Below are positions 2,856 to 15,603 of a stretch of 15,603 nucleotides of DNA, piece after piece. The notes under the pieces were generated by a model that searched no databases, was not told the origin of the DNA, and worked only from the letters and a program-made list of their open reading frames with translations. The stretch covers positions 1 through 15,603 of the forward strand of contig JALONX010000171.1 of assembly GCA_025454695.1 (NCBI GenBank), written 5' to 3'. Position 1 is the stretch's first letter, and every line of letters begins with the position of its first letter. Source of the DNA: Chloroflexaceae bacterium. GTDB taxonomy: Bacteria; Chloroflexota; Chloroflexia; Chloroflexales; Chloroflexaceae. Both the position numbers and the translations under genes were made by a program.

Positions 2856-3275
2856 TTAGGATTGTGACCAGTCTACTAGCAACAACCCTGGAATAGCTTG
2901 AAAATGAGTGCGGTTGCGTGTCACCAGGGTTGCCCCATGGGCAAGTGCAACCGTAGCAATACGCAAATCCTGTGTCCCTACACGAATACCCTGGCTGCGA
3001 AACGTGCTTACCTGGGTATCCAGGTTTGTTGTAAAGTCGTACACGGTAAAGCTAGACAGGTATTCAAATGCCATACGGAACCGTTGGTAGGCAAGAACAC
3101 GAGCCTCACTTGTGTTCGCTACTCGAATCGCGGCCAGCCAGCCGCGCATCTGCTCCTCAACTGTAATAACACTAATACAAATATTCGTTGGCCCTGCTTG
3201 TTGCACACGTTGTCGCACCAGGGGATGACCGCACTGATCCAAACTGACGTGGTCAGTATCAAGCAGAAAGATCAT
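2856..3275 (-). CDS. vapC: VapC-type PIN-domain toxin ribonuclease.
   Basis: MIFLLDTDHVS...VEEQ...TQDLRIATVALAHGATLVTRNRTHF: the N-terminal LLDTD, internal EE, and the D...TRN..HF acidic residues fit a PIN catalytic site. Its start ATGA overlaps the upstream antitoxin stop (3272-3275). Confidence 0.8.
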   Translation of the reverse strand: MIFLLDTDHVSLDQCGHPLVRQRVQQAGPTNICISVITVEEQMRGWLAAIRVANTSEARVLAYQRFRMAFEYLSSFTVYDFTTNLDTQVSTFRSQGIRVGTQDLRIATVALAHGATLVTRNRTHFQAIPGLLLVDWSQS

Positions 3276-3580
3276 TGGCCTGCGTCCTGGTCAAGGGTTT
3301 TACGTTGTTGTTCGATTTCCGATAACATGATGCGCGTTGTTTCATCGTCGGGGAACATGCCTGCGTGACGAGGCCAGACACTAGCGGTGCCGTTGGACGT
3401 TTCATCAAGGGTTATCTGAACAAATTCGACGCCAGCCTGCTGGCGCGAAAGAAGGGCTTGGCGAATTTGTGTTAGGGCATCTTCTCGTGAAGGGGCCTCG
3501 ACTACCAGGTCGGGAAACTGAAGCGCACGAGCGGCATAACGGTTCTTATCGCGGCGGGTCAGTTCAATGTCAACAATCAT
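3272..3580 (-). CDS. Antitoxin partner of VapC. The N-terminal half resembles the HicB/UPF0150 fold; the C-terminal half is unassigned.
   Basis: 102 aa: MIVDIELTRRDKNRYAARALQFPDLVVEAPSREDALTQIRQALL..., which fits the HicB/UPF0150 N-terminal pattern (.Y.A.v.elPg...eG.T.eEAl...r.Al). A strong RBS AGGAGG (revcomp of 3586-3591) lies 5 nt upstream of ATG 3580. There is a 4-nt ATGA overlap with vapC. Confidence 0.55.
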   Translation of the reverse strand: MIVDIELTRRDKNRYAARALQFPDLVVEAPSREDALTQIRQALLSRQQAGVEFVQITLDETSNGTASVWPRHAGMFPDDETTRIMLSEIEQQRKTLDQDAGQ

Positions 3581-7211: not shown

Positions 7212-7252
7212 GCCAGTGTAGCGACGCCCCGGCGAGGCGTCGCTACACTGGC
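7212..7252. other. Perfect 17-bp GC-rich inverted repeat (hairpin) with a 7-nt loop.
   Basis: GCCAGTGTAGCGACGCC (7212-7228), then ccggcga, then GGCGTCGCTACACTGGC (7236-7252). It lies in the ThuA upstream / crtI-like downstream spacer, with no adjacent U-tract on either strand. Confidence 0.5.
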
Positions 7253-7370
7253 CATTGTACACCTTTGGGCAACGTTGCATCATTCATCGTGGTGCGGTTC
7301 CATCGTCCATCGTTTTTCATCGCGGGCGGGTCACAGACCGCGCCCCTACGACGCTGATGTTCGTCGTTCC

Positions 7371-7412
7371 GGTTCTCGGTTCTCGGTTCTTGGTTCCTGG
7401 TGCCTGGTTCTC
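7371..7412. repeat. Heptanucleotide tandem array (GGTTCTC) of about 6 units.
   Basis: ggttctc ggttctc ggttctt ggttcct ggtgcct ggttctc. CATCGT(C) heptamers precede it at 7300-7320. Confidence 0.7.
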
Positions 7413-7422
7413 TCGTCAGCGT

Positions 7423-8967
7423 TCAGCGCTCGCTTGGCCGCACGATGTGGTAGGCACAGTTGATGCCGCTCATCGTCACGCTGACGACGCCGATACCGGG
7501 GTGGGTGTCGGCCCCCACCAGCAGCAGGTTGCGCACGTCGGTCTTGTGCTGGAAGCGCTTGAAGGCGAACTGGTCAATCGTCATCTGTGCGCCCCAGCCG
7601 CCGCCCCACTTCGCCAGGTAATCCTCGTAGGTCAACGGCGTCCCGCATGTCACATAGTCGAGTCCGGCGCTGATGCCGGGAAAGACCTGCTCGGCCATGG
7701 CCATCGCCCGCGTGAAGGCAGCCTGTTTGCGGCTTTCATAGTTTGCATCGCGTTGCCAATCGGCATAGCGGCAAAACTCCGGGTCGAAGTAGATGATTTG
7801 CAGGGCATGCTTGCCCGGCGGGGCCAGGCCCTTGTCCTTAAACGACGAGTTGCAAAAGCAAATCATGCGCAAGTCGTCGGTAGACTGGTAGTAGTCATCA
7901 ATGTAGAGCGTGTGCGGGTCGGTGCCGGGCGGAAACACTCGCTCGTCTACCCCGGCGAAGATGGTGAAGAAGGAGTCGGTGAACGTCATCCGATCCACCT
8001 TTTCCAGCGTGGCCGGTCGTAGCCACTGCTCCTCCACCAGCGGCTTCACCTCCGTCCCCACCCGCCCAAAGGTGTTCACCACACCCGCGTTGGAAACGAC
8101 GTGAGTCGCATGGATGATGCGCCCATCGTTCAGTTCCACGCCGTGGGCCACGCCATTGCTGATGCAGACGCGGCGCACCGAGGCACGGTAGTGCAGCTGG
8201 CCGCCGTGCTTTTCCAGCCCGCGAATGAGCAGCCGGGCCAGTTCGCCGCTGCCGCCCTTGGTGAAGCTGCCGCCGCCTTTGTGCCGCTCGATCAGCACCA
8301 GCGCCGCCAGAATAGCCGGGGCGTTGTCAATGTCGGAGTAGCAGAAGGCCACAAACTCGGCGTTGATAATCGCCCGCAGCTCGCGGCTGGCGATGTAGCG
8401 GTCAAACAGATCGCCCAGCGAGCGATTGGCCCAGTAGTTGATGGCCAGCAGCCTGTCCAGCGGCACCCGCCAGACCAGCCGCAGCAGCGCGGCAGGGTCG
8501 TCCAGCGGCAGGTTGGGCATGCCCACAAACATGCGGTGCAGCTCCTCCAGCTGAGCGTAGAACTCCCGAATGCCCCACTCATCAGCGGGAAAGGCCGCCA
8601 CCAGCTGCTCGACGTACTCCTCGGTGGAGCCTGCCACCCGCAGGCAGCCCCGGGGGTGCCGGAAGGTGTAGTAGCTGTCGTAGTGGCTCAGTTCGGGGTA
8701 CTCGCCGATTTCGTCAAACACCTGCTGGTGGTAACGCATGTTGCCCCGCGTCGCGTCCATGCCGAAGAAGAGCTTCGGGCCAACGTCGAAGCGGTACTGC
8801 TTGTGGGGAAACGTCTGGGCCGAGCCGCCCGGCAGGTAGTGCTGCTCCAGCACCAGCACGCTTTTGCCACGGGCCGCGCAGAGGGCAGCAGTGGTGAGTC
8901 CACCGATTCCGGCCCCGATCACAATCACATCGTAATAGTCTTGCAGTGGTTTTGCGTTTGCTGGCAT
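7423..8967 (-). CDS. CrtI/phytoene-desaturase-family FAD-dependent oxidoreductase.
   Basis: N-terminal Rossmann motif YDVIVIGAGIGGLTTAALCAARGKSVLVLEQHYLPGGSAQTF. At 514 aa it has the typical CrtI-family length. ATG at 8967-8965. Confidence 0.8.
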   Translation of the reverse strand: MPANAKPLQDYYDVIVIGAGIGGLTTAALCAARGKSVLVLEQHYLPGGSAQTFPHKQYRFDVGPKLFFGMDATRGNMRYHQQVFDEIGEYPELSHYDSYYTFRHPRGCLRVAGSTEEYVEQLVAAFPADEWGIREFYAQLEELHRMFVGMPNLPLDDPAALLRLVWRVPLDRLLAINYWANRSLGDLFDRYIASRELRAIINAEFVAFCYSDIDNAPAILAALVLIERHKGGGSFTKGGSGELARLLIRGLEKHGGQLHYRASVRRVCISNGVAHGVELNDGRIIHATHVVSNAGVVNTFGRVGTEVKPLVEEQWLRPATLEKVDRMTFTDSFFTIFAGVDERVFPPGTDPHTLYIDDYYQSTDDLRMICFCNSSFKDKGLAPPGKHALQIIYFDPEFCRYADWQRDANYESRKQAAFTRAMAMAEQVFPGISAGLDYVTCGTPLTYEDYLAKWGGGWGAQMTIDQFAFKRFQHKTDVRNLLLVGADTHPGIGVVSVTMSGINCAYHIVRPSER

Positions 8968-8971
8968 AAGG

Positions 8972-8999
8972 GAGTTACGAGTTACGAGTTACGAGTTAT
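8972..8999. repeat. Heptanucleotide tandem array (GAGTTAC) of 4 units.
   Basis: gagttac gagttac gagttac gagttat, immediately upstream of the crtI-like start codon. Confidence 0.7.
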
Positions 9000-9125
9000 A
9001 AATTATGAACAGGCAAAGGAATTGAAGGAAATGAGGGAAATATGTTGCGTAGTCTGTTCAAAAAGTTTTCTTATGTTTTGCTCTGCTTCAGCCACTGAAT
9101 GAATTCGGCGTCTGAACGGCTCAAA

Positions 9126-9510
9126 CACGCTGATGAGCTTTAAAAATGAAAACGGGTATACGGGCTGGCCGTAGCCCTACTATAGTCTGTGAACGACGTT
9201 TTCTTGGCTCCAACGAACGGCGTTGTCATTCCGACCGTAGGGAGGAATCGGCATGGTTCTGCGTTGAAGACCCCTCCCTGCGGTCGGGGTGACACCGAGC
9301 CTGCATGGCAGAAAACTTTTTTATAGACTACTAAAGAGCGCGGCTAGGGACAGGCAGCCCGCCTACGCGAGCTATACCGGATGTAATGTTTCATCTTCAT
9401 CAGCGTGTTGCTTATGAGTTTTAAGAAATTAAACGGGTATATTTGCTAGCCGTAGCCCTAAAGGGCGCGGCTTGAAGCTGCGAAGCCCACCTGCGCGGGC
9501 TATACCGGAT
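9126..9510. repeat. Duplicated ~110-bp intergenic element. Copy 1 spans 9126-9179 plus 9333-9382 and is split by a 153-bp insert (9180-9332). Copy 2 spans 9401-9510.
   Basis: ...tgatgagctttaaaaatgaaaacgggtatacgggctggccgtagcccta | aaagagcgcggctagggacaggcagcccgcctacgcgagctataccggat aligns at about 80% identity with ...ttatgagttttaagaaattaaacgggtatatttgctagccgtagccctaaagggcgcggcttgaagctgcgaagcccacctgcgcgggctataccggat. The insert contains a 15-bp perfect RNA stem (9231-9245 / 9273-9287, one G-U pair) that extends to 21 bp. Confidence 0.6.
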
Positions 9511-9518
9511 TTCTGATC

Positions 9519-9559
9519 ACGCAGTACGCAGCACGCAGTACGCAGTTCGCAGTATGTAG
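9519..9559. repeat. Heptanucleotide tandem array (ACGCAGT) of about 6 units.
   Basis: acgcagt acgcagc acgcagt acgcagt tcgcagt atgtagt, immediately after the sirtuin stop codon on the minus strand. Confidence 0.7.
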
Positions 9560-10324
9560 TTACCCTTCCACCTCGCCATCATCTGGCCATGCTGCTGCGA
9601 CGAGCGCCGGGAGCAACGTGCCTGCCTTGCCGTTCAGCCGAAAGAGCGGTGGTGTGGTTTTGTCCTCAACATCAAGATTGATAAAAATTACCGTTGCGCC
9701 AAACTTCAGCGCCACCTGGGGCAGCGAGGCCGCCGGTTCCACCATGCCCGAGGTGCCGATGGAGAAGAAGAAATCGCATGTGGCGCTGGCCTCAATCGCA
9801 TTGTTCAAAGCCTCTTCCGGTAGCCGCTCGCCAAACCAGACCACGCCGGGCCGCAGCGGGCTGCCGCAGATGGTGCAGCGGGGCGGCACCGCCTTGGACT
9901 CATCCCAGGTCTCGGCGGGGTGGCCGTTGGCAAAGCAGCGCGTGCGACGGATGTTGCCATGCAACTCGATCACGGCGCTGCTCCCGGCCAGCTGGTGCAG
10001 GCTGTCCACGTTCTGGGTGATGAGGGTGAGGCGGGGTACTAGCCGTTCCAGAGCCGCCAGGGCGTGGTGGGCCGGGTTGGGCGCGGCTGCTTCCACCAAC
10101 TGCCGCCGCCATGCATACCATTCCCAGACCAACTTCGGGTTGCGCTGAAACGCCTCCGGCGTGGCCAGTTCCTCCGGGCGATACTGCGCCCACAGGCCGG
10201 TCATCGCATCGCGGAAGGTGGGCAGGCCGCTTTCCGCCGAAATGCCCGCGCCAGTCAGTGCCACCACATGGCGAGCCAGACGTAGAGCACTGACTAATTC
10301 GGTTGGTAGATTAAAATCTGACAT
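9560..10324 (-). CDS. cobB: Sir2-family NAD-dependent protein deacylase (CobB-type sirtuin).
   Basis: VALTGAGISAESGLPTFRD, QNVDSLH and ELHG motifs plus a Zn-binding C..C...C..C motif. ATG at 10324-10322. Confidence 0.85.
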   Translation of the reverse strand: MSDFNLPTELVSALRLARHVVALTGAGISAESGLPTFRDAMTGLWAQYRPEELATPEAFQRNPKLVWEWYAWRRQLVEAAAPNPAHHALAALERLVPRLTLITQNVDSLHQLAGSSAVIELHGNIRRTRCFANGHPAETWDESKAVPPRCTICGSPLRPGVVWFGERLPEEALNNAIEASATCDFFFSIGTSGMVEPAASLPQVALKFGATVIFINLDVEDKTTPPLFRLNGKAGTLLPALVAAAWPDDGEVEG

Positions 10325-11594: not shown

Positions 11595-11622
11595 CAATCT
11601 GCAATCTGCAATCTACAATCTG
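11595..11622. repeat. Heptanucleotide tandem array (CAATCTG) of 4 units in the 5' leader of the MVP-like gene.
   Basis: caatctg caatctg caatcta caatctg, ending 4 nt before the AGGAGG RBS. Confidence 0.7.
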
Positions 11623-11637
11623 CTACAGGAGGTCATT

Positions 11638-13026
11638 ATGCTGTTTCCCCGCCTCTACTTCCTCAAGGAAAACGAACAACTGCTGATTGAAAGCTTCACC
11701 AGCCGACGCGTGGTGAATGGCCCAACCACCTATGTTGCCCCGCCACTGACGCTGGCCACCCGCCGCAGTGGCATGACACTGGAGCCGACCGACTATCTGC
11801 GGGTGCGCAATGTGCTGACGGGCGAACTGCGCAACGAGATCGGGCCGCAGCTCTTCTTCCCCGGCCCCAACGACGAAGTGATGGATCGACTCACGGCCAT
11901 GCCGCTGAAGCAGAACCAGTACATGCGGCTGATTGACCGCCGCAACGGGGTAATCCGGGTGGTGCGCGGCGAGGCCAGCGTAGTGCTTGGCCCAACCGAG
12001 GAGATTCTCGAAAGCGCCCGCGACGGCATCAACATTGACGAACGCACGGCGGTGCTGGTGCGCAACCTGGCCAGCGGCGAGCTGCGCCTTGTTACCACGC
12101 CGCAGGTGTTTGTGCCCGCGCCAACGGAAGAATTGGTGGAGGTGCGCAAGCGGGTGGTGTTGGAAGACCACGAGATGGTGGTGATTAAGGAGCGCAGCGG
12201 GGCCTACCGCTTCCGGCGGGGCAACGACGCCGAGCGTTCGTTTTTCCTTGCGCCCTACGAAGAACTGGTGCAGTTTCGCTGGTCGAGCGGGCTGCACAAA
12301 GACCGCAAGGAGCTGCGAGTAACGCAGATTGACATGCGGCCCAAATTTATGTGGTACGACTTTGAAGTGCGCACCCAGGACAATGTGGAACTCGTCATCG
12401 GCATCACCTTCTTCTGGCAGATTGTGGACGCCGAAACGATGGTGCGCACCACCGACGACATCACCGGCGATGTGTGTGCCCACGCCCGCAGCGTGATCAT
12501 TCAGGCCGTCTCGCAGGCGTCGTTGGAGCGCTTTCTGGCCGGGTTTAATGCGATTATTGCCGATGCTGTGGTGCGCCCCGCCGACCCGTTTTATACCGAA
12601 CGGGGCGTGCTCATCCATGCGGTCGAGGTGCGCTCCATCGTCTGCAAAGACGCAGGCACGCAACGCATTTTGCAGGAGATTATTCAGGAGACGACGAACC
12701 GGCTCAACCGCATTCAGCAGCAGGAAAGCGAAAACGAGGTGCAGCTGCGCCAGATCAACGGCGCGATTGAGGCAGAAGCCTTGCGCCGCCAGTTGCTAGA
12801 AACGCGCCGCGAGGTGGCTCAGCTGGAAGCCCAGATCGCAGGCGGAGCCGAAAGCGAACGGGTGCAGGCCTTTCTGCTCGGGCTAGGCGACCTGCCCGTG
12901 GCCGAGAAGCTGGCCATCTTCACCACGCTGCGCAAGCAGGAGGCGCTTCAGGCCCTCAGCGGCGGCACGGCCCAGCTCTACTTCACCCCCGCCGAGGTGG
13001 ATTTGCACATCGAAAGCCGAACGTGA
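11638..13026 (+). CDS. MVP-repeat / SPFH (band-7)-like protein, a bacterial homologue of the major vault protein. It has five ~42-aa vault-like repeats, a shoulder-like domain and a coiled coil.
   Basis: ATG 11638 with a perfect RBS AGGAGG (11626-11631). Residues 15-200 form five tandem ~42-aa modules sharing h.h...G(E).R...GP..F.P.P.EEh: RRVVNGPTTYVAPP / TGELRNEIGPQLFFPGPNDEVM / NGVIRVVRGEASVVLGPTEEIL / SGELRLVTTPQVFVPAPTEELV / SGAYRFRRGNDAERSFFLAPYEELV. Then comes VELVIGITFFWQIVDAE...SVIIQAVSQASLERFLAGFNAII (SPFH-like), then a heptad-rich helix (NRLNRIQQQESENEVQLRQINGAIEAEALRRQLLETRREVAQLEAQ). Confidence 0.6.
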   Translation: MLFPRLYFLKENEQLLIESFTSRRVVNGPTTYVAPPLTLATRRSGMTLEPTDYLRVRNVLTGELRNEIGPQLFFPGPNDEVMDRLTAMPLKQNQYMRLIDRRNGVIRVVRGEASVVLGPTEEILESARDGINIDERTAVLVRNLASGELRLVTTPQVFVPAPTEELVEVRKRVVLEDHEMVVIKERSGAYRFRRGNDAERSFFLAPYEELVQFRWSSGLHKDRKELRVTQIDMRPKFMWYDFEVRTQDNVELVIGITFFWQIVDAETMVRTTDDITGDVCAHARSVIIQAVSQASLERFLAGFNAIIADAVVRPADPFYTERGVLIHAVEVRSIVCKDAGTQRILQEIIQETTNRLNRIQQQESENEVQLRQINGAIEAEALRRQLLETRREVAQLEAQIAGGAESERVQAFLLGLGDLPVAEKLAIFTTLRKQEALQALSGGTAQLYFTPAEVDLHIESRT

Positions 13027-13100
13027 GGAAATTAAAGGAAATAAAGGAAATGGCACAACGATGCAATCCCCCTCATTTCCTTTATCTCCCTCACTTCCCT
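13026..13100 (+). terminator. Imperfect AT-rich hairpin immediately after the MVP-like stop codon; a candidate terminator or attenuator.
   Basis: A perfect 12-bp core (13041-13052 pairing with 13074-13085) is extended by an imperfect ~26-bp stem around a 21-nt loop. There is no clean U-tract on the plus strand. Confidence 0.3.
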
Positions 13101-13106
13101 GCGCCT

Positions 13107-13140
13107 TACGCAGTACGCAGTACGCATCATCGCTCATCGT
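13107..13140. repeat. Heptanucleotide arrays: TACGCAG x3 followed by TCATCG(C) x2.
   Basis: tacgcag tacgcag tacgca tcatcgc tcatcg. These are the same two heptamer families seen at 9519-9559 and 7300-7320. Confidence 0.6.
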
Positions 13141-15400: not shown

Positions 15401-15603
15401 CAGTTTGCAGGACTCAGTTGGCAGTTGGCAGCTGATTCATAGCAGAACCACGAACCAGTAGCTGGACACATACTGCGCAGTTTGCAGGACTCAGTTGGCA
15501 GTTGGCAGCTGGTTCATAGCAGAACCACGAACCAGTAGCTGGACACATACTGCGCAGTTTGCAGGACTCAGTTGGCAGTTGGCAGCTGCTTTTTAACACA
15601 ACC
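15401..15603. repeat. 77-bp tandem direct repeat, at least 2.4 copies, running off the window end.
   Basis: The unit cagtttgcaggactcagttggcagttggcagctg(a/g)ttcatagcagaaccacgaaccagtagctggacacatactgcg sits at 15401-15477 and 15478-15554, with a partial third copy at 15555-15588. There is a single mismatch, and the unit contains an internal CAGTTGG x2 motif. Confidence 0.8.

Follow-up and report, generated by a model that had tools for sequence, protein, structure and literature searches.

A putative nested cluster of palindromic repeats with Ssn-type mini-hairpins in an intergenic spacer of a Chloroflexaceae bacterium

Introduction

What fills the 592-nt spacer (positions 8968-9559) between the start codon of a crtI-like gene and the stop codon of a SIR2 gene in a Chloroflexaceae bacterium? 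The sequence is a 15,603-nt contig of an NCBI metagenome-assembled genome (MAG; proteins MCU0491988.1 and MCU0491989.1), and this contig, at its full length, is referred to here as the window. A preliminary description had read the spacer as gene-free, with two diverged copies of a repeat, one of them split by an insert, and had offered two explanations: an insertion resembling a MITE (miniature inverted-repeat transposable element) into a pre-existing repeat, or a structured small-RNA locus. Here we describe the anatomy of the spacer, a paralogous empty site within it, and the covariation, wide distribution and adjacency to Chloroflexia GIY-YIG nuclease genes of the short hairpin units that the insert carries. 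In our assessment (probability roughly 0.7) the spacer is not a gene but a nested cluster of non-coding palindromic repeats resembling MITEs and repetitive extragenic palindromes (REPs). The insert, B, would be an arm-flanked head-to-head pair of Ssn-type single-stranded DNA (ssDNA) hairpins, inserted into a hairpin loop of the first repeat copy, A1.

Results

An interrupted repeat beside an uninterrupted copy

No open reading frame (ORF) longer than 51 aa lies inside positions 8968-9559, which bears out the gene-free description. The spacer holds two copies of an element, A1 and A2, directly adjacent and head to tail, with B inside A1. The features are listed below; L001 denotes a JGI metagenome contig (sample 3300037462) that carries the same spacer.

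9124-9179, + strand: A1 left part, AT-rich arm and 5' half of hairpin 1 (GCCGTAGCCCTA)
9177-9179, no strand: CTA left direct repeat (candidate target-site duplication)
9180-9330, + strand: insert B, 151-nt palindromic element (arms, head-to-head unit pair, spacers), bounded by the A1/A2 alignment
9183-9205, + strand: B left terminal arm TAGTCTGTGAACGACGTTTTCTT, 17/22 with one gap against the reverse complement of the right arm
9224-9249, + strand: unit 1, T-GTC ATTCC GA CC GTA GG GA GGAAT C
9269-9294, - strand: unit 2, T-GTC ACCCC GA CC GCA GG GA GGGGT C
9310-9330, - strand: B right terminal arm, on the + strand AGAAAACTTTTTTATAGACTA, containing the T6 run
9331-9333, no strand: CTA right direct repeat
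9334-9409, + strand: A1 right part, 3' half of hairpin 1, hairpin 2 and right AT-rich arm
9410-9512, + strand: A2, uninterrupted, right arm absent in the window (L001 has 81 more nt after 9511)
9449-9471, + strand: hairpin 1 of A2, intact, GCCGTAGCCC-TAAA-GGGCGCGGC, the paralogous empty site of B

L001 is 100% identical to the window across 6093 + 4690 nt. The sole difference is the 81 extra nt (L001 6094-6174) between window positions 9511 and 9512, inside the repeat cluster and with TT microhomology at the ends; this indel is either a population polymorphism or an assembly difference. The additional sequence supplies the right arm of A2, an inverted copy of a 22-nt arm motif and an inverted AGGAAAT-type array. 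Copy A2 is contiguous, as had been described, but its right arm is missing from the window.

A repeat finder matched A1 to A2 in three direct repeats: 9129-9179 with 9410-9460 (80%), 9331-9345 with 9458-9472 (93%) and 9356-9382 with 9484-9510 (89%). When positions 9180-9333 were removed from A1 and A2 was completed from L001, the two aligned end to end with 102/127 aligned positions identical, in keeping with the earlier estimate of about 80%. The global alignment score of 125 lies about 15 standard deviations above that of shuffled sequences (-17.7 +/- 9.3), so the repeat observation is real and far above chance. The copy length of about 110 bp given previously needs revision, as each copy reaches about 130 nt once its long AT-rich inverted arms are included.

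Element A is an imperfect palindrome of about 130 nt, with AT-rich outer arms (9124-9160 / 9373-9409) around a GC-rich core that holds two short hairpins. The arms show one compensatory change (ATGAAA/TTTCAT vs ATTAAA/TTTAAT), and the complementary terminal 5-mers, AACAC..GTGTT and then GTGTT..AATAC, show five. The predicted inner folds of A1 and A2 differ. A covariance model built from A1 and A2 scored 113.8 bits at 9405-9529, and over 242 kb of Chloroflexia-related loci it recovered only the two window copies. The left half of A, used as a pattern, had no match in GTDB genomes; the hairpin-1 core had none in viral contigs and none in JGI metagenomes, a collection evidently without L001's own sample. 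By blastn, A gave no match to PLSDB plasmids and only chance matches to all fetched loci. Two other designations of A were considered and rejected. As a GTAG-type REP dimer, its GTAG (9451-9454, and on the - strand of A1) falls inside stems, and there is no family for comparison. As a CRISPR array, taken to mean at least three regularly spaced identical repeats with unique spacers, it offers two sub-threshold CRISPR-DR28-like matches (31 and 19 bits; cutoff 35), 126 nt apart, which are hairpin 2 of A1 and of A2.

Insert B and its arms

The split of the first copy was correctly recognised in the preliminary description, while the size of 153 bp was not: the extra DNA in A1 amounts to 154 nt, composed of the 151-nt B and a second copy of CTA. 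At the corresponding place A2 has a single CTA (GCCCTAAAG) and is uninterrupted. B breaks the 4-nt TAAA loop of the GC-rich hairpin 1 in A1, a hairpin that is intact in A2. A1 and A2 provide a clean filled site and a paralogous empty site for a hairpin-built element. The insert holds no credible ORF.

The stem noted earlier within B is a central inverted repeat (9221-9245 / 9273-9297) with 84% complementarity. The short hairpin and T6 run are also present, and they form the right terminal arm of B; a consensus scan did not support their reading as a terminator. The A1/A2 boundary, the imperfect 22-nt inverted arms, the CTA/CTA repeat and the hairpin-loop site together agree with the proposed MITE-like insertion into a pre-existing repeat.

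The same build, arms around a head-to-head unit pair, is found elsewhere in Chloroflexaceae. In Candidatus Chloroploca mongolica (locus L126) 23-nt arms with 87% complementarity lie around a head-to-head pair at 20890-20958, and in locus L123 a pair lies between CTACAGTTGTAGTT-type arms. Among 33 head-to-head pairs examined, six have flanking arms that no shuffle equals, so arm-flanked pairs are a recurring, not a universal, build; the arm sequence is lineage-specific. An orthologous empty site was sought for the Chloroploca element, and synteny with locus L124 stops exactly at the element.

A mini-hairpin unit that covaries and is widespread

Each of the two units of B opens with a (T)GTC tag; a 5-bp stem, tandem G.A and an inner 2-bp stem lead up to a GNA triloop, and the stem is followed by C, giving a 25-nt consensus of (T)GTC-stem5-GA-NC-GNA-GN-GA-stem5-C. 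C-GNA-G triloops with sheared G.A pairs, such as d(GCGAAGC), are unusually stable DNA mini-hairpins. Because the conserved GA..GA and GNA are not self-complementary, the unit is strand-specific. Units 1 and 2 differ at two stem positions per side, and each keeps its own Watson-Crick stem by compensatory changes, which leaves two G.T and two A.C oppositions in the long stem between the units. These oppositions explain why the + strand of B folds better as RNA (-71.3 kcal/mol, against -60.4 for the - strand) while the DNA energies are equal (about -30 on both strands). The covariation preserves each 25-nt mini-hairpin rather than the long inter-unit stem.

A pattern scan of JGI metagenomes with GTCATTCCGANCGNAGNGAGGAAT returned at least 120 stretches, from soils, peat, sediments and springs. 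Among the matches listed, the two free pairing positions of the unit are paired in 144/147 (GC 108, AT 27, CG 9), and 24 of 70 core-only matches have all 5/5 Watson-Crick stem pairs. Two positions outside the search pattern are likewise conserved in these matches, the T before GTC (134/151 units) and the C directly after the stem (146/151). Relaxed matching within the same set found 203 units, vs 4 in shuffled loci, and their arrangement comprised 30 head-to-head, 4 tail-to-tail and 16 tandem pairs with 112 solo units. Of 38 independently ascertained units, 29 carry GTC and 33 the C after the stem. Core-only finds include other stems that are still complementary (ATTTC/GAAAT, ATGCT/AGCAT, ATCCC/GGGAT, ACCCT/AGGGT, ACCCC/GGGGT). 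Taken across these sequences, the 5-bp stem and the inner 2-bp stem clearly covary. The unit's tail is C followed by TC or TG in most cases, with CGG and CTT in the window. Full-text literature searches found no paper naming the unit's sequence and nothing relevant on GCGAAGC hairpins in intergenic DNA.

Regular tandem arrays of the unit were seen too, repeating every 65 nt or so (L029 14500-14691, L009 6390-6504), in which each repeat holds a full unit and a truncated copy (GTCATTCCTCGCC).

Association with small GIY-YIG nuclease genes

A hidden Markov model (HMM) built from three small ORFs adjoining units detected GIY-YIG ORFs in only four motif-fished loci (L032, L035, L065 and L083). All four ORFs lie at most about 210 nt from a unit or between two units; just 8% of motif-fished DNA lies within 200 nt of a unit. 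GIY-YIG ORFs beside units match Pfam PF01541 with E ~1e-15. For the L065 protein the closest named homologues are Chloroflexia MAG proteins with 80-82% identity, and the best solved relative of the neighbouring nuclease is the UPF0213 protein BH0048 (E = 0.0056).

Three independent Chloroflexia loci were also fetched by exact protein identity, without reference to the motif, and in 3/3 of these MAG loci units flank the GIY-YIG gene. One (L129/L130) has a head-to-head unit pair on either side of the gene, and a second (L131) has single units, upstream and at the 3' end. In the third (L132 2685-3150, equal to L133) the gene and one upstream unit are bracketed by an 18-nt inverted repeat (CACCAGAATCCCCCTTTG ... 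CAAAGGGGGGATTCTGGTG), an insertion sequence (IS)-like packaging of a presumably Ssn-type nuclease within a Chloroflexia MAG. The defining motif-gene association is reproduced in Chloroflexia, the class of the window's organism.

Outer layers of the spacer

The repeats are enclosed by tandem arrays and by a further copy of the arm motif. Tandem Repeats Finder (TRF) confirmed the bracketing by heptamer and 9-mer arrays reported earlier.

8972-8998, no strand: heptamer array GAGTTAC x3.9 (TRF), abutting the crtI-like start codon
9016-9041, no strand: 9-mer array AAGGAAATG x2.9 (TRF)
9050-9072, + strand: outer left arm TAGTCTGTTCAAAAAGTTTTCTT (pairwise alignment), the same 22-nt motif as the B ends
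9519-9554, no strand: heptamer array ACGCAGT x5.1 (TRF), directly after the SIR2 stop codon

The outer left arm matches the reverse complement of the B right arm at 20/23 positions, and the outer right arm, present in inverted orientation in L001's extra 81 nt, at 17/21. In the L001 spacer the 22-nt terminal motif therefore occurs four times, as two inverted pairs. Given the motif's positions at 9050-9072 and, inverted, in the 81 nt, the second, outer pair encloses about 510 nt that hold A1 (with B) and A2. Outside these arms L001 has an AGGAAAT inverted-array hairpin split in two, and beyond it heptamer arrays. TAATTTCCTTTATTTCCCTT on the far side in L001 is the inverted counterpart of the 9-mer array at 9016-9041. 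This array corresponds to the left half of an inverted-array hairpin of AGGAAAT type, presumably older, whose right half is kept only in L001. An intact paralogous module lies at 13026-13126, directly after the stop codon of a Band_7/SPFH gene: an AGGAAAT-type 9-mer array and its inverted copy (13026-13103) form a long hairpin with TACGCAG heptamers behind it. Positions 13075-13126 share 79% identity with the right end of the L001 spacer.

Discussion

A proposed order of events

We suggest that the ancestral SIR2-crtI spacer had heptamer arrays before and after an AGGAAAT-type inverted-array hairpin, much as in the module at 13026-13126. Into the loop of this hairpin would have come an element with 22-nt inverted arms (TAGTCYGT..AAAAGYTTTC) at its ends, and this arm-bounded element would now hold the two tandem diverged palindromes of about 130 nt, A1 and A2. 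B, a 151-nt sibling with the same arms, would later have moved as one unit into the loop of hairpin 1 in A1, duplicating CTA. In this nesting, a hairpin of each earlier element would carry the next element at its tip. We presume that the head-to-head unit pair does the work in B, one unit being readable per strand and forming in ssDNA, and a small GIY-YIG nuclease of a single domain, whose gene would lie elsewhere in the genome, may recognise and nick both units, which are probably its recognition and cut sites. An effect on the expression of SIR2 or the crtI-like gene is conceivable, for example by hairpins in a read-through transcript.

Relation to known repeats

The closest published parallel is the Ssn system (Nat Commun 2025;16:2388, PMC11893778). 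The Neisseria Transformation Sequence (NTS; CGTCATTCCCGCGMAVGCGGGAATCYRG) is cut only as ssDNA by SsnA, a 94-aa GIY-YIG nuclease without activity on RNA; cleavage depends on the three bases upstream of the NTS palindrome, the C right after it is the most important base for binding, and ssn genes are typically motif-flanked in the architecture NTS-ssnA-NTS (PMC11893778). NTS and the Ssn-related motifs (SRM) share with our units a GTC immediately 5' of a short palindrome (TGTC in both window units), a palindrome starting ATTCC (unit 1), a C directly 3' (both window units), and repetition of an oriented motif in intergenic DNA. The likeness is evident when NTS, CGTC ATTCCCGC GMAV GCGGGAAT C, is set against unit 1, TGTC ATTCC GACC GTA GGGA GGAAT C. 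Small (~100 aa) single-domain GIY-YIG genes flanked on one or both sides are a further shared trait, seen in related DNA and not in the window. In contrast to NTS, the units have a stem that a conserved tandem G.A pair breaks up and a GNA triloop caps, and their hosts are Chloroflexia and soil or sediment bacteria, whereas SRM are mainly found in Pseudomonadati.

The units also resemble the CGTC-tagged REP superfamily, which includes Neisseria dRS3 and Rickettsia RPE-4/6 (Di Nocera et al., BMC Genomics 2013;14:522, PMC3733652). In that survey, which listed such repeats for five phyla, Chloroflexi not among them, the tag is often TGTC, stems begin A-T, T-A, no dedicated transposase is known, head-to-head dimers predominate with tail-to-tail ones rare, and REPs serve as IS insertion targets (PMC3733652). 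Some dimers lie inside longer palindromes, as in Thermomicrobium roseum, Anabaena variabilis and Halothiobacillus neapolitanus (PMC3733652). The units have the same terminal tag (TGTC in both window units), the same predominance of head-to-head dimers (B itself being one) and rarity of tail-to-tail ones, heterodimers with different stems, and some dimers within longer palindromes; their stems begin A-T, T-A as well, although unit 2 departs from this with AC/GT instead of AT/AT. Unlike CGTC REPs, they have a stem of 9 positions always containing two G.A mismatches, against a criterion of 8-9 bp with at most one mismatch, a GNA loop of 3 nt against 4-5 nt, and a CTN tail against CCA. Repeats with two non-Watson-Crick positions were discarded by the survey rules (PMC3733652). 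The units appear to group with CGTC-tagged REPs, Neisseria dRS3/NTS and Ssn-related motifs as repeats of one kind.

Bacterial MITEs such as Correia/NEMIS, ERIC, RUP and Nezha are 70-300 bp long and non-coding, with terminal inverted repeats of 15-30 bp (PMC3733652). B agrees with them in size, lack of coding capacity, robust hairpin and position near coding sequences, and its imperfect inverted arms and 3-bp direct repeat may correspond to their terminal inverted repeats and short flanking repeat; it differs in that the searches made, in collections that lack the source genome, brought to light no parent IS sharing its ends and no dispersed copies of B or A. Bertels and Rainey are said to have described REPINs, in PLoS Genet in 2011, as REP doublets that form hairpins and are mobilised by RAYT transposases. 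B is similarly built of two short inverted palindromic units with a short spacer, as one non-coding, intergenic, hairpin-forming unit, but its units carry GTC and not GTAG (the GTAG of A hairpin 1 lies inside a stem), and the enzyme associated with the units would be a GIY-YIG nuclease. No RAYT (IS200/IS605-like) ORF was seen near units. The insertion sequences IS1397 and ISKpn1 insert into the loops of bacterial interspersed mosaic elements. B in the hairpin-1 loop of A1 and the outer element in the AGGAAAT hairpin loop have a similar placement, the difference being that the inserted elements are non-coding.

Points against, and other explanations

Several results weigh against this reading. 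Neither whole B nor its 22-nt arms were found outside the locus by blastn and pattern searches, which included the fetched loci, so repeated transposition of B is unsupported. The complementarity of the B arms is only marginally above that of shuffled sequences (z = 2.5, equalled in 4/100). The CTA repeat, at 3 bp, is weak evidence if taken alone, and the empty site is paralogous (A2) rather than orthologous. Element A would be called a mobile repeat solely for its palindromic build and local duplication, because no relatives of it are known. The window contains no GIY-YIG ORF by HMM or Pfam. Finally, the published SRM pattern, HGTCWYN(0-2)YYVSBRHN(0-5)WNVSBRGN(0-2)RNCYNB, matches Neisseria NTS. 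It misses both window units and the common GAGCGNAGCGA form, and had no match in the window or in loci L122-L127; it fails on the units because the tandem G.A pair breaks the stem.

Under an RNA-based explanation, A1 and A2 would be tandem small-RNA genes or cis-regulatory leaders for the crtI-like gene, and B would give a hairpin RNA and supply the terminator for it. Folding speaks for it: the + strand of 9100-9520 reaches -168.7 kcal/mol (z = -5.3; - strand z = -4.9) and is favoured as RNA through G.U pairs, the arms and terminal 5-mers of A carry compensatory changes (one and five), B ends in a T6 run, and SIR2-crtI co-transcription, if real, would put the whole spacer into - strand RNA. 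An Rfam search, which the preliminary description had proposed as a check, was run at gathering score and at E<10. At gathering score it gave no match in the window or in ten unit-bearing loci, and in 8900-9650 it returned only sub-threshold CRISPR-DR28 and miRNA-like matches, rejected as simple hairpins. No promoter- or terminator-like consensus site was found on either strand. Upstream of the orthologous crtI-like gene in the closest relative (80% aa identity) no similarity to the spacer was found, so the spacer is not conserved there; the covariance model of A likewise finds nothing else in its 242 kb. A1 and A2 share no single predicted inner fold, and the covariation in B keeps the unit stems while degrading the long inter-unit stem. 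Moreover, the tandem G.A and GNA are read on opposite strands in the two units, a misfit with a single transcript, and SsnA is inactive on RNA (PMC11893778). Given these negative scans, the unconserved spacer, and selection at unit level on opposite strands, a dedicated small-RNA locus is disfavoured, and we consider it quite improbable.

The cluster might instead have arisen in place, by tandem duplication, slippage or hairpin-primed template switching, with B made or copied locally into A1 and never transposed. Local repeats do abound here (heptamer and 9-mer arrays, the tandem A, four copies of one 22-mer), the 81-nt indel with its TT microhomology would indicate that slippage or deletion is active, and neither A nor B as a whole was found elsewhere in the searches made. 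Against this, the units of B match the motif of many unrelated contigs (at least 120 stretches), also beside GIY-YIG genes, arm-flanked head-to-head pairs with different arms recur in other Chloroflexaceae genomes, and B is cleanly bounded with a short direct repeat in an otherwise colinear A copy. A purely local origin of the cluster is unlikely in our view, though it may account for A and for the 81-nt indel. Chimeric joining or repeat collapse during assembly would be suggested by the origin of the window in a MAG contig and by the 81-nt indel relative to the JGI contig inside the repeat cluster. The two separate records are nevertheless concordant, their identity spanning A1, B and 103 nt of A2, which leaves very little room for an assembly artefact.

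Implications

The nested cluster of hairpin-built repeats that we favour is of a kind already known (REPs, REPINs, MITEs, Ssn motifs), so the novelty is modest, and the locus by itself is a typical repeat-rich intergenic spacer. What is new is that the motif has a G.A/GNA variant, which is very common among bacteria from the environment and escapes the published Ssn-motif pattern, and that the pairing between CGTC-type REPs and small GIY-YIG nucleases extends to Chloroflexia. The locus also contributes one clean filled site against a paralogous empty site, which bears on mobility, a matter left open by both PMC3733652 and PMC11893778. The units provide concrete candidate ssDNA substrates, and the unit-flanked Chloroflexia GIY-YIG genes candidate enzymes (e.g. 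protein P0017 of GCA_035274425.1), for new Ssn specificities.

A bolder proposal, which we regard as speculative and unlikely, is that B is a fossil of transposition in which GTC-hairpin head-to-head pairs, with or without arms, are mobilised via ssDNA by the GIY-YIG nucleases they flank and integrate into hairpin loops with a 3-bp duplication. If true, the motif-GIY-YIG-motif arrangement would constitute a new transposon class driven by a GIY-YIG enzyme, and the Russian-doll order of the spacer (hairpin loop, arm-bounded element, A hairpin loop, B) would be explained.

Heptamer arrays

Short heptamer arrays of 3-6 copies occur in nearly every intergenic spacer, with a different 7-mer at almost every site, and often abut start codons, ribosome-binding sites or stop codons. 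They were found at the following positions.

Window: 7366-7410, 8972-8998, 9519-9554, 11595-11623, 13107-13126, 15415-15585
L129: 2469-2560, 17005-17095, 17822-17845, 18787-18850
L131: 1709-1733

The GAGTTAC/GTAACTC 7-mer of the array at the crtI-like start codon recurs in the L131 array, in another Chloroflexia MAG. In the unit-bearing metagenome loci (at least 120), period 7 is the commonest tandem period, with 134 TRF rows vs 45 for period 8. A physical link between heptamer arrays and units was considered and rejected: the arrays are enriched only some 1.9-fold close to units, and the intergenic position of both confounds this. A full-text search found no literature on heptanucleotide arrays in Chloroflexi; no analogue is known to us beyond the cyanobacterial short tandemly repeated repetitive (STRR) heptamers.

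Flanking genes and other features of the window

The genes that border the spacer were assigned with Pfam.

7423-8967, - strand: crtI-like FAD oxidoreductase, start codon bordering the spacer
9560-10324, - strand: SIR2 deacylase, stop codon bordering the spacer

The nearest relatives of the crtI-like protein are from Chloroflexaceae MAGs (80% and 75% aa identity) and Candidatus Chloroploca (~70%). Both flanking proteins form singleton clusters, and exact-protein look-ups for more of the source genome or other alleles returned only short contigs from one JGI sample.

Downstream of the crtI-like gene, a 426-nt spacer holds a long heptamer array and, at 7212-7253, a palindrome whose 17-bp arms, GCCAGTGTAGCGACGCC / GGCGTCGCTACACTGGC, match perfectly around an 8-nt loop and which contains both GTAG and CGTC. 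The contig end (15401-15588) is a 77-nt tandem repeat of 2.4 copies, 99% identical, with CAGTTGG heptamers inside each copy. A PIN-domain ORF (2856-3275, - strand; E = 4e-5) overlaps by 4 nt the upstream 102-aa ORF at 3272-3580 on the same strand, which has no Pfam match, and the pair resembles a toxin-antitoxin system. The protein encoded at 11638-13026 on the + strand (462 aa) has Band_7/SPFH matches together with a weak Major Vault Protein shoulder and Vault_3 repeat matches, which is unusual in a bacterium.

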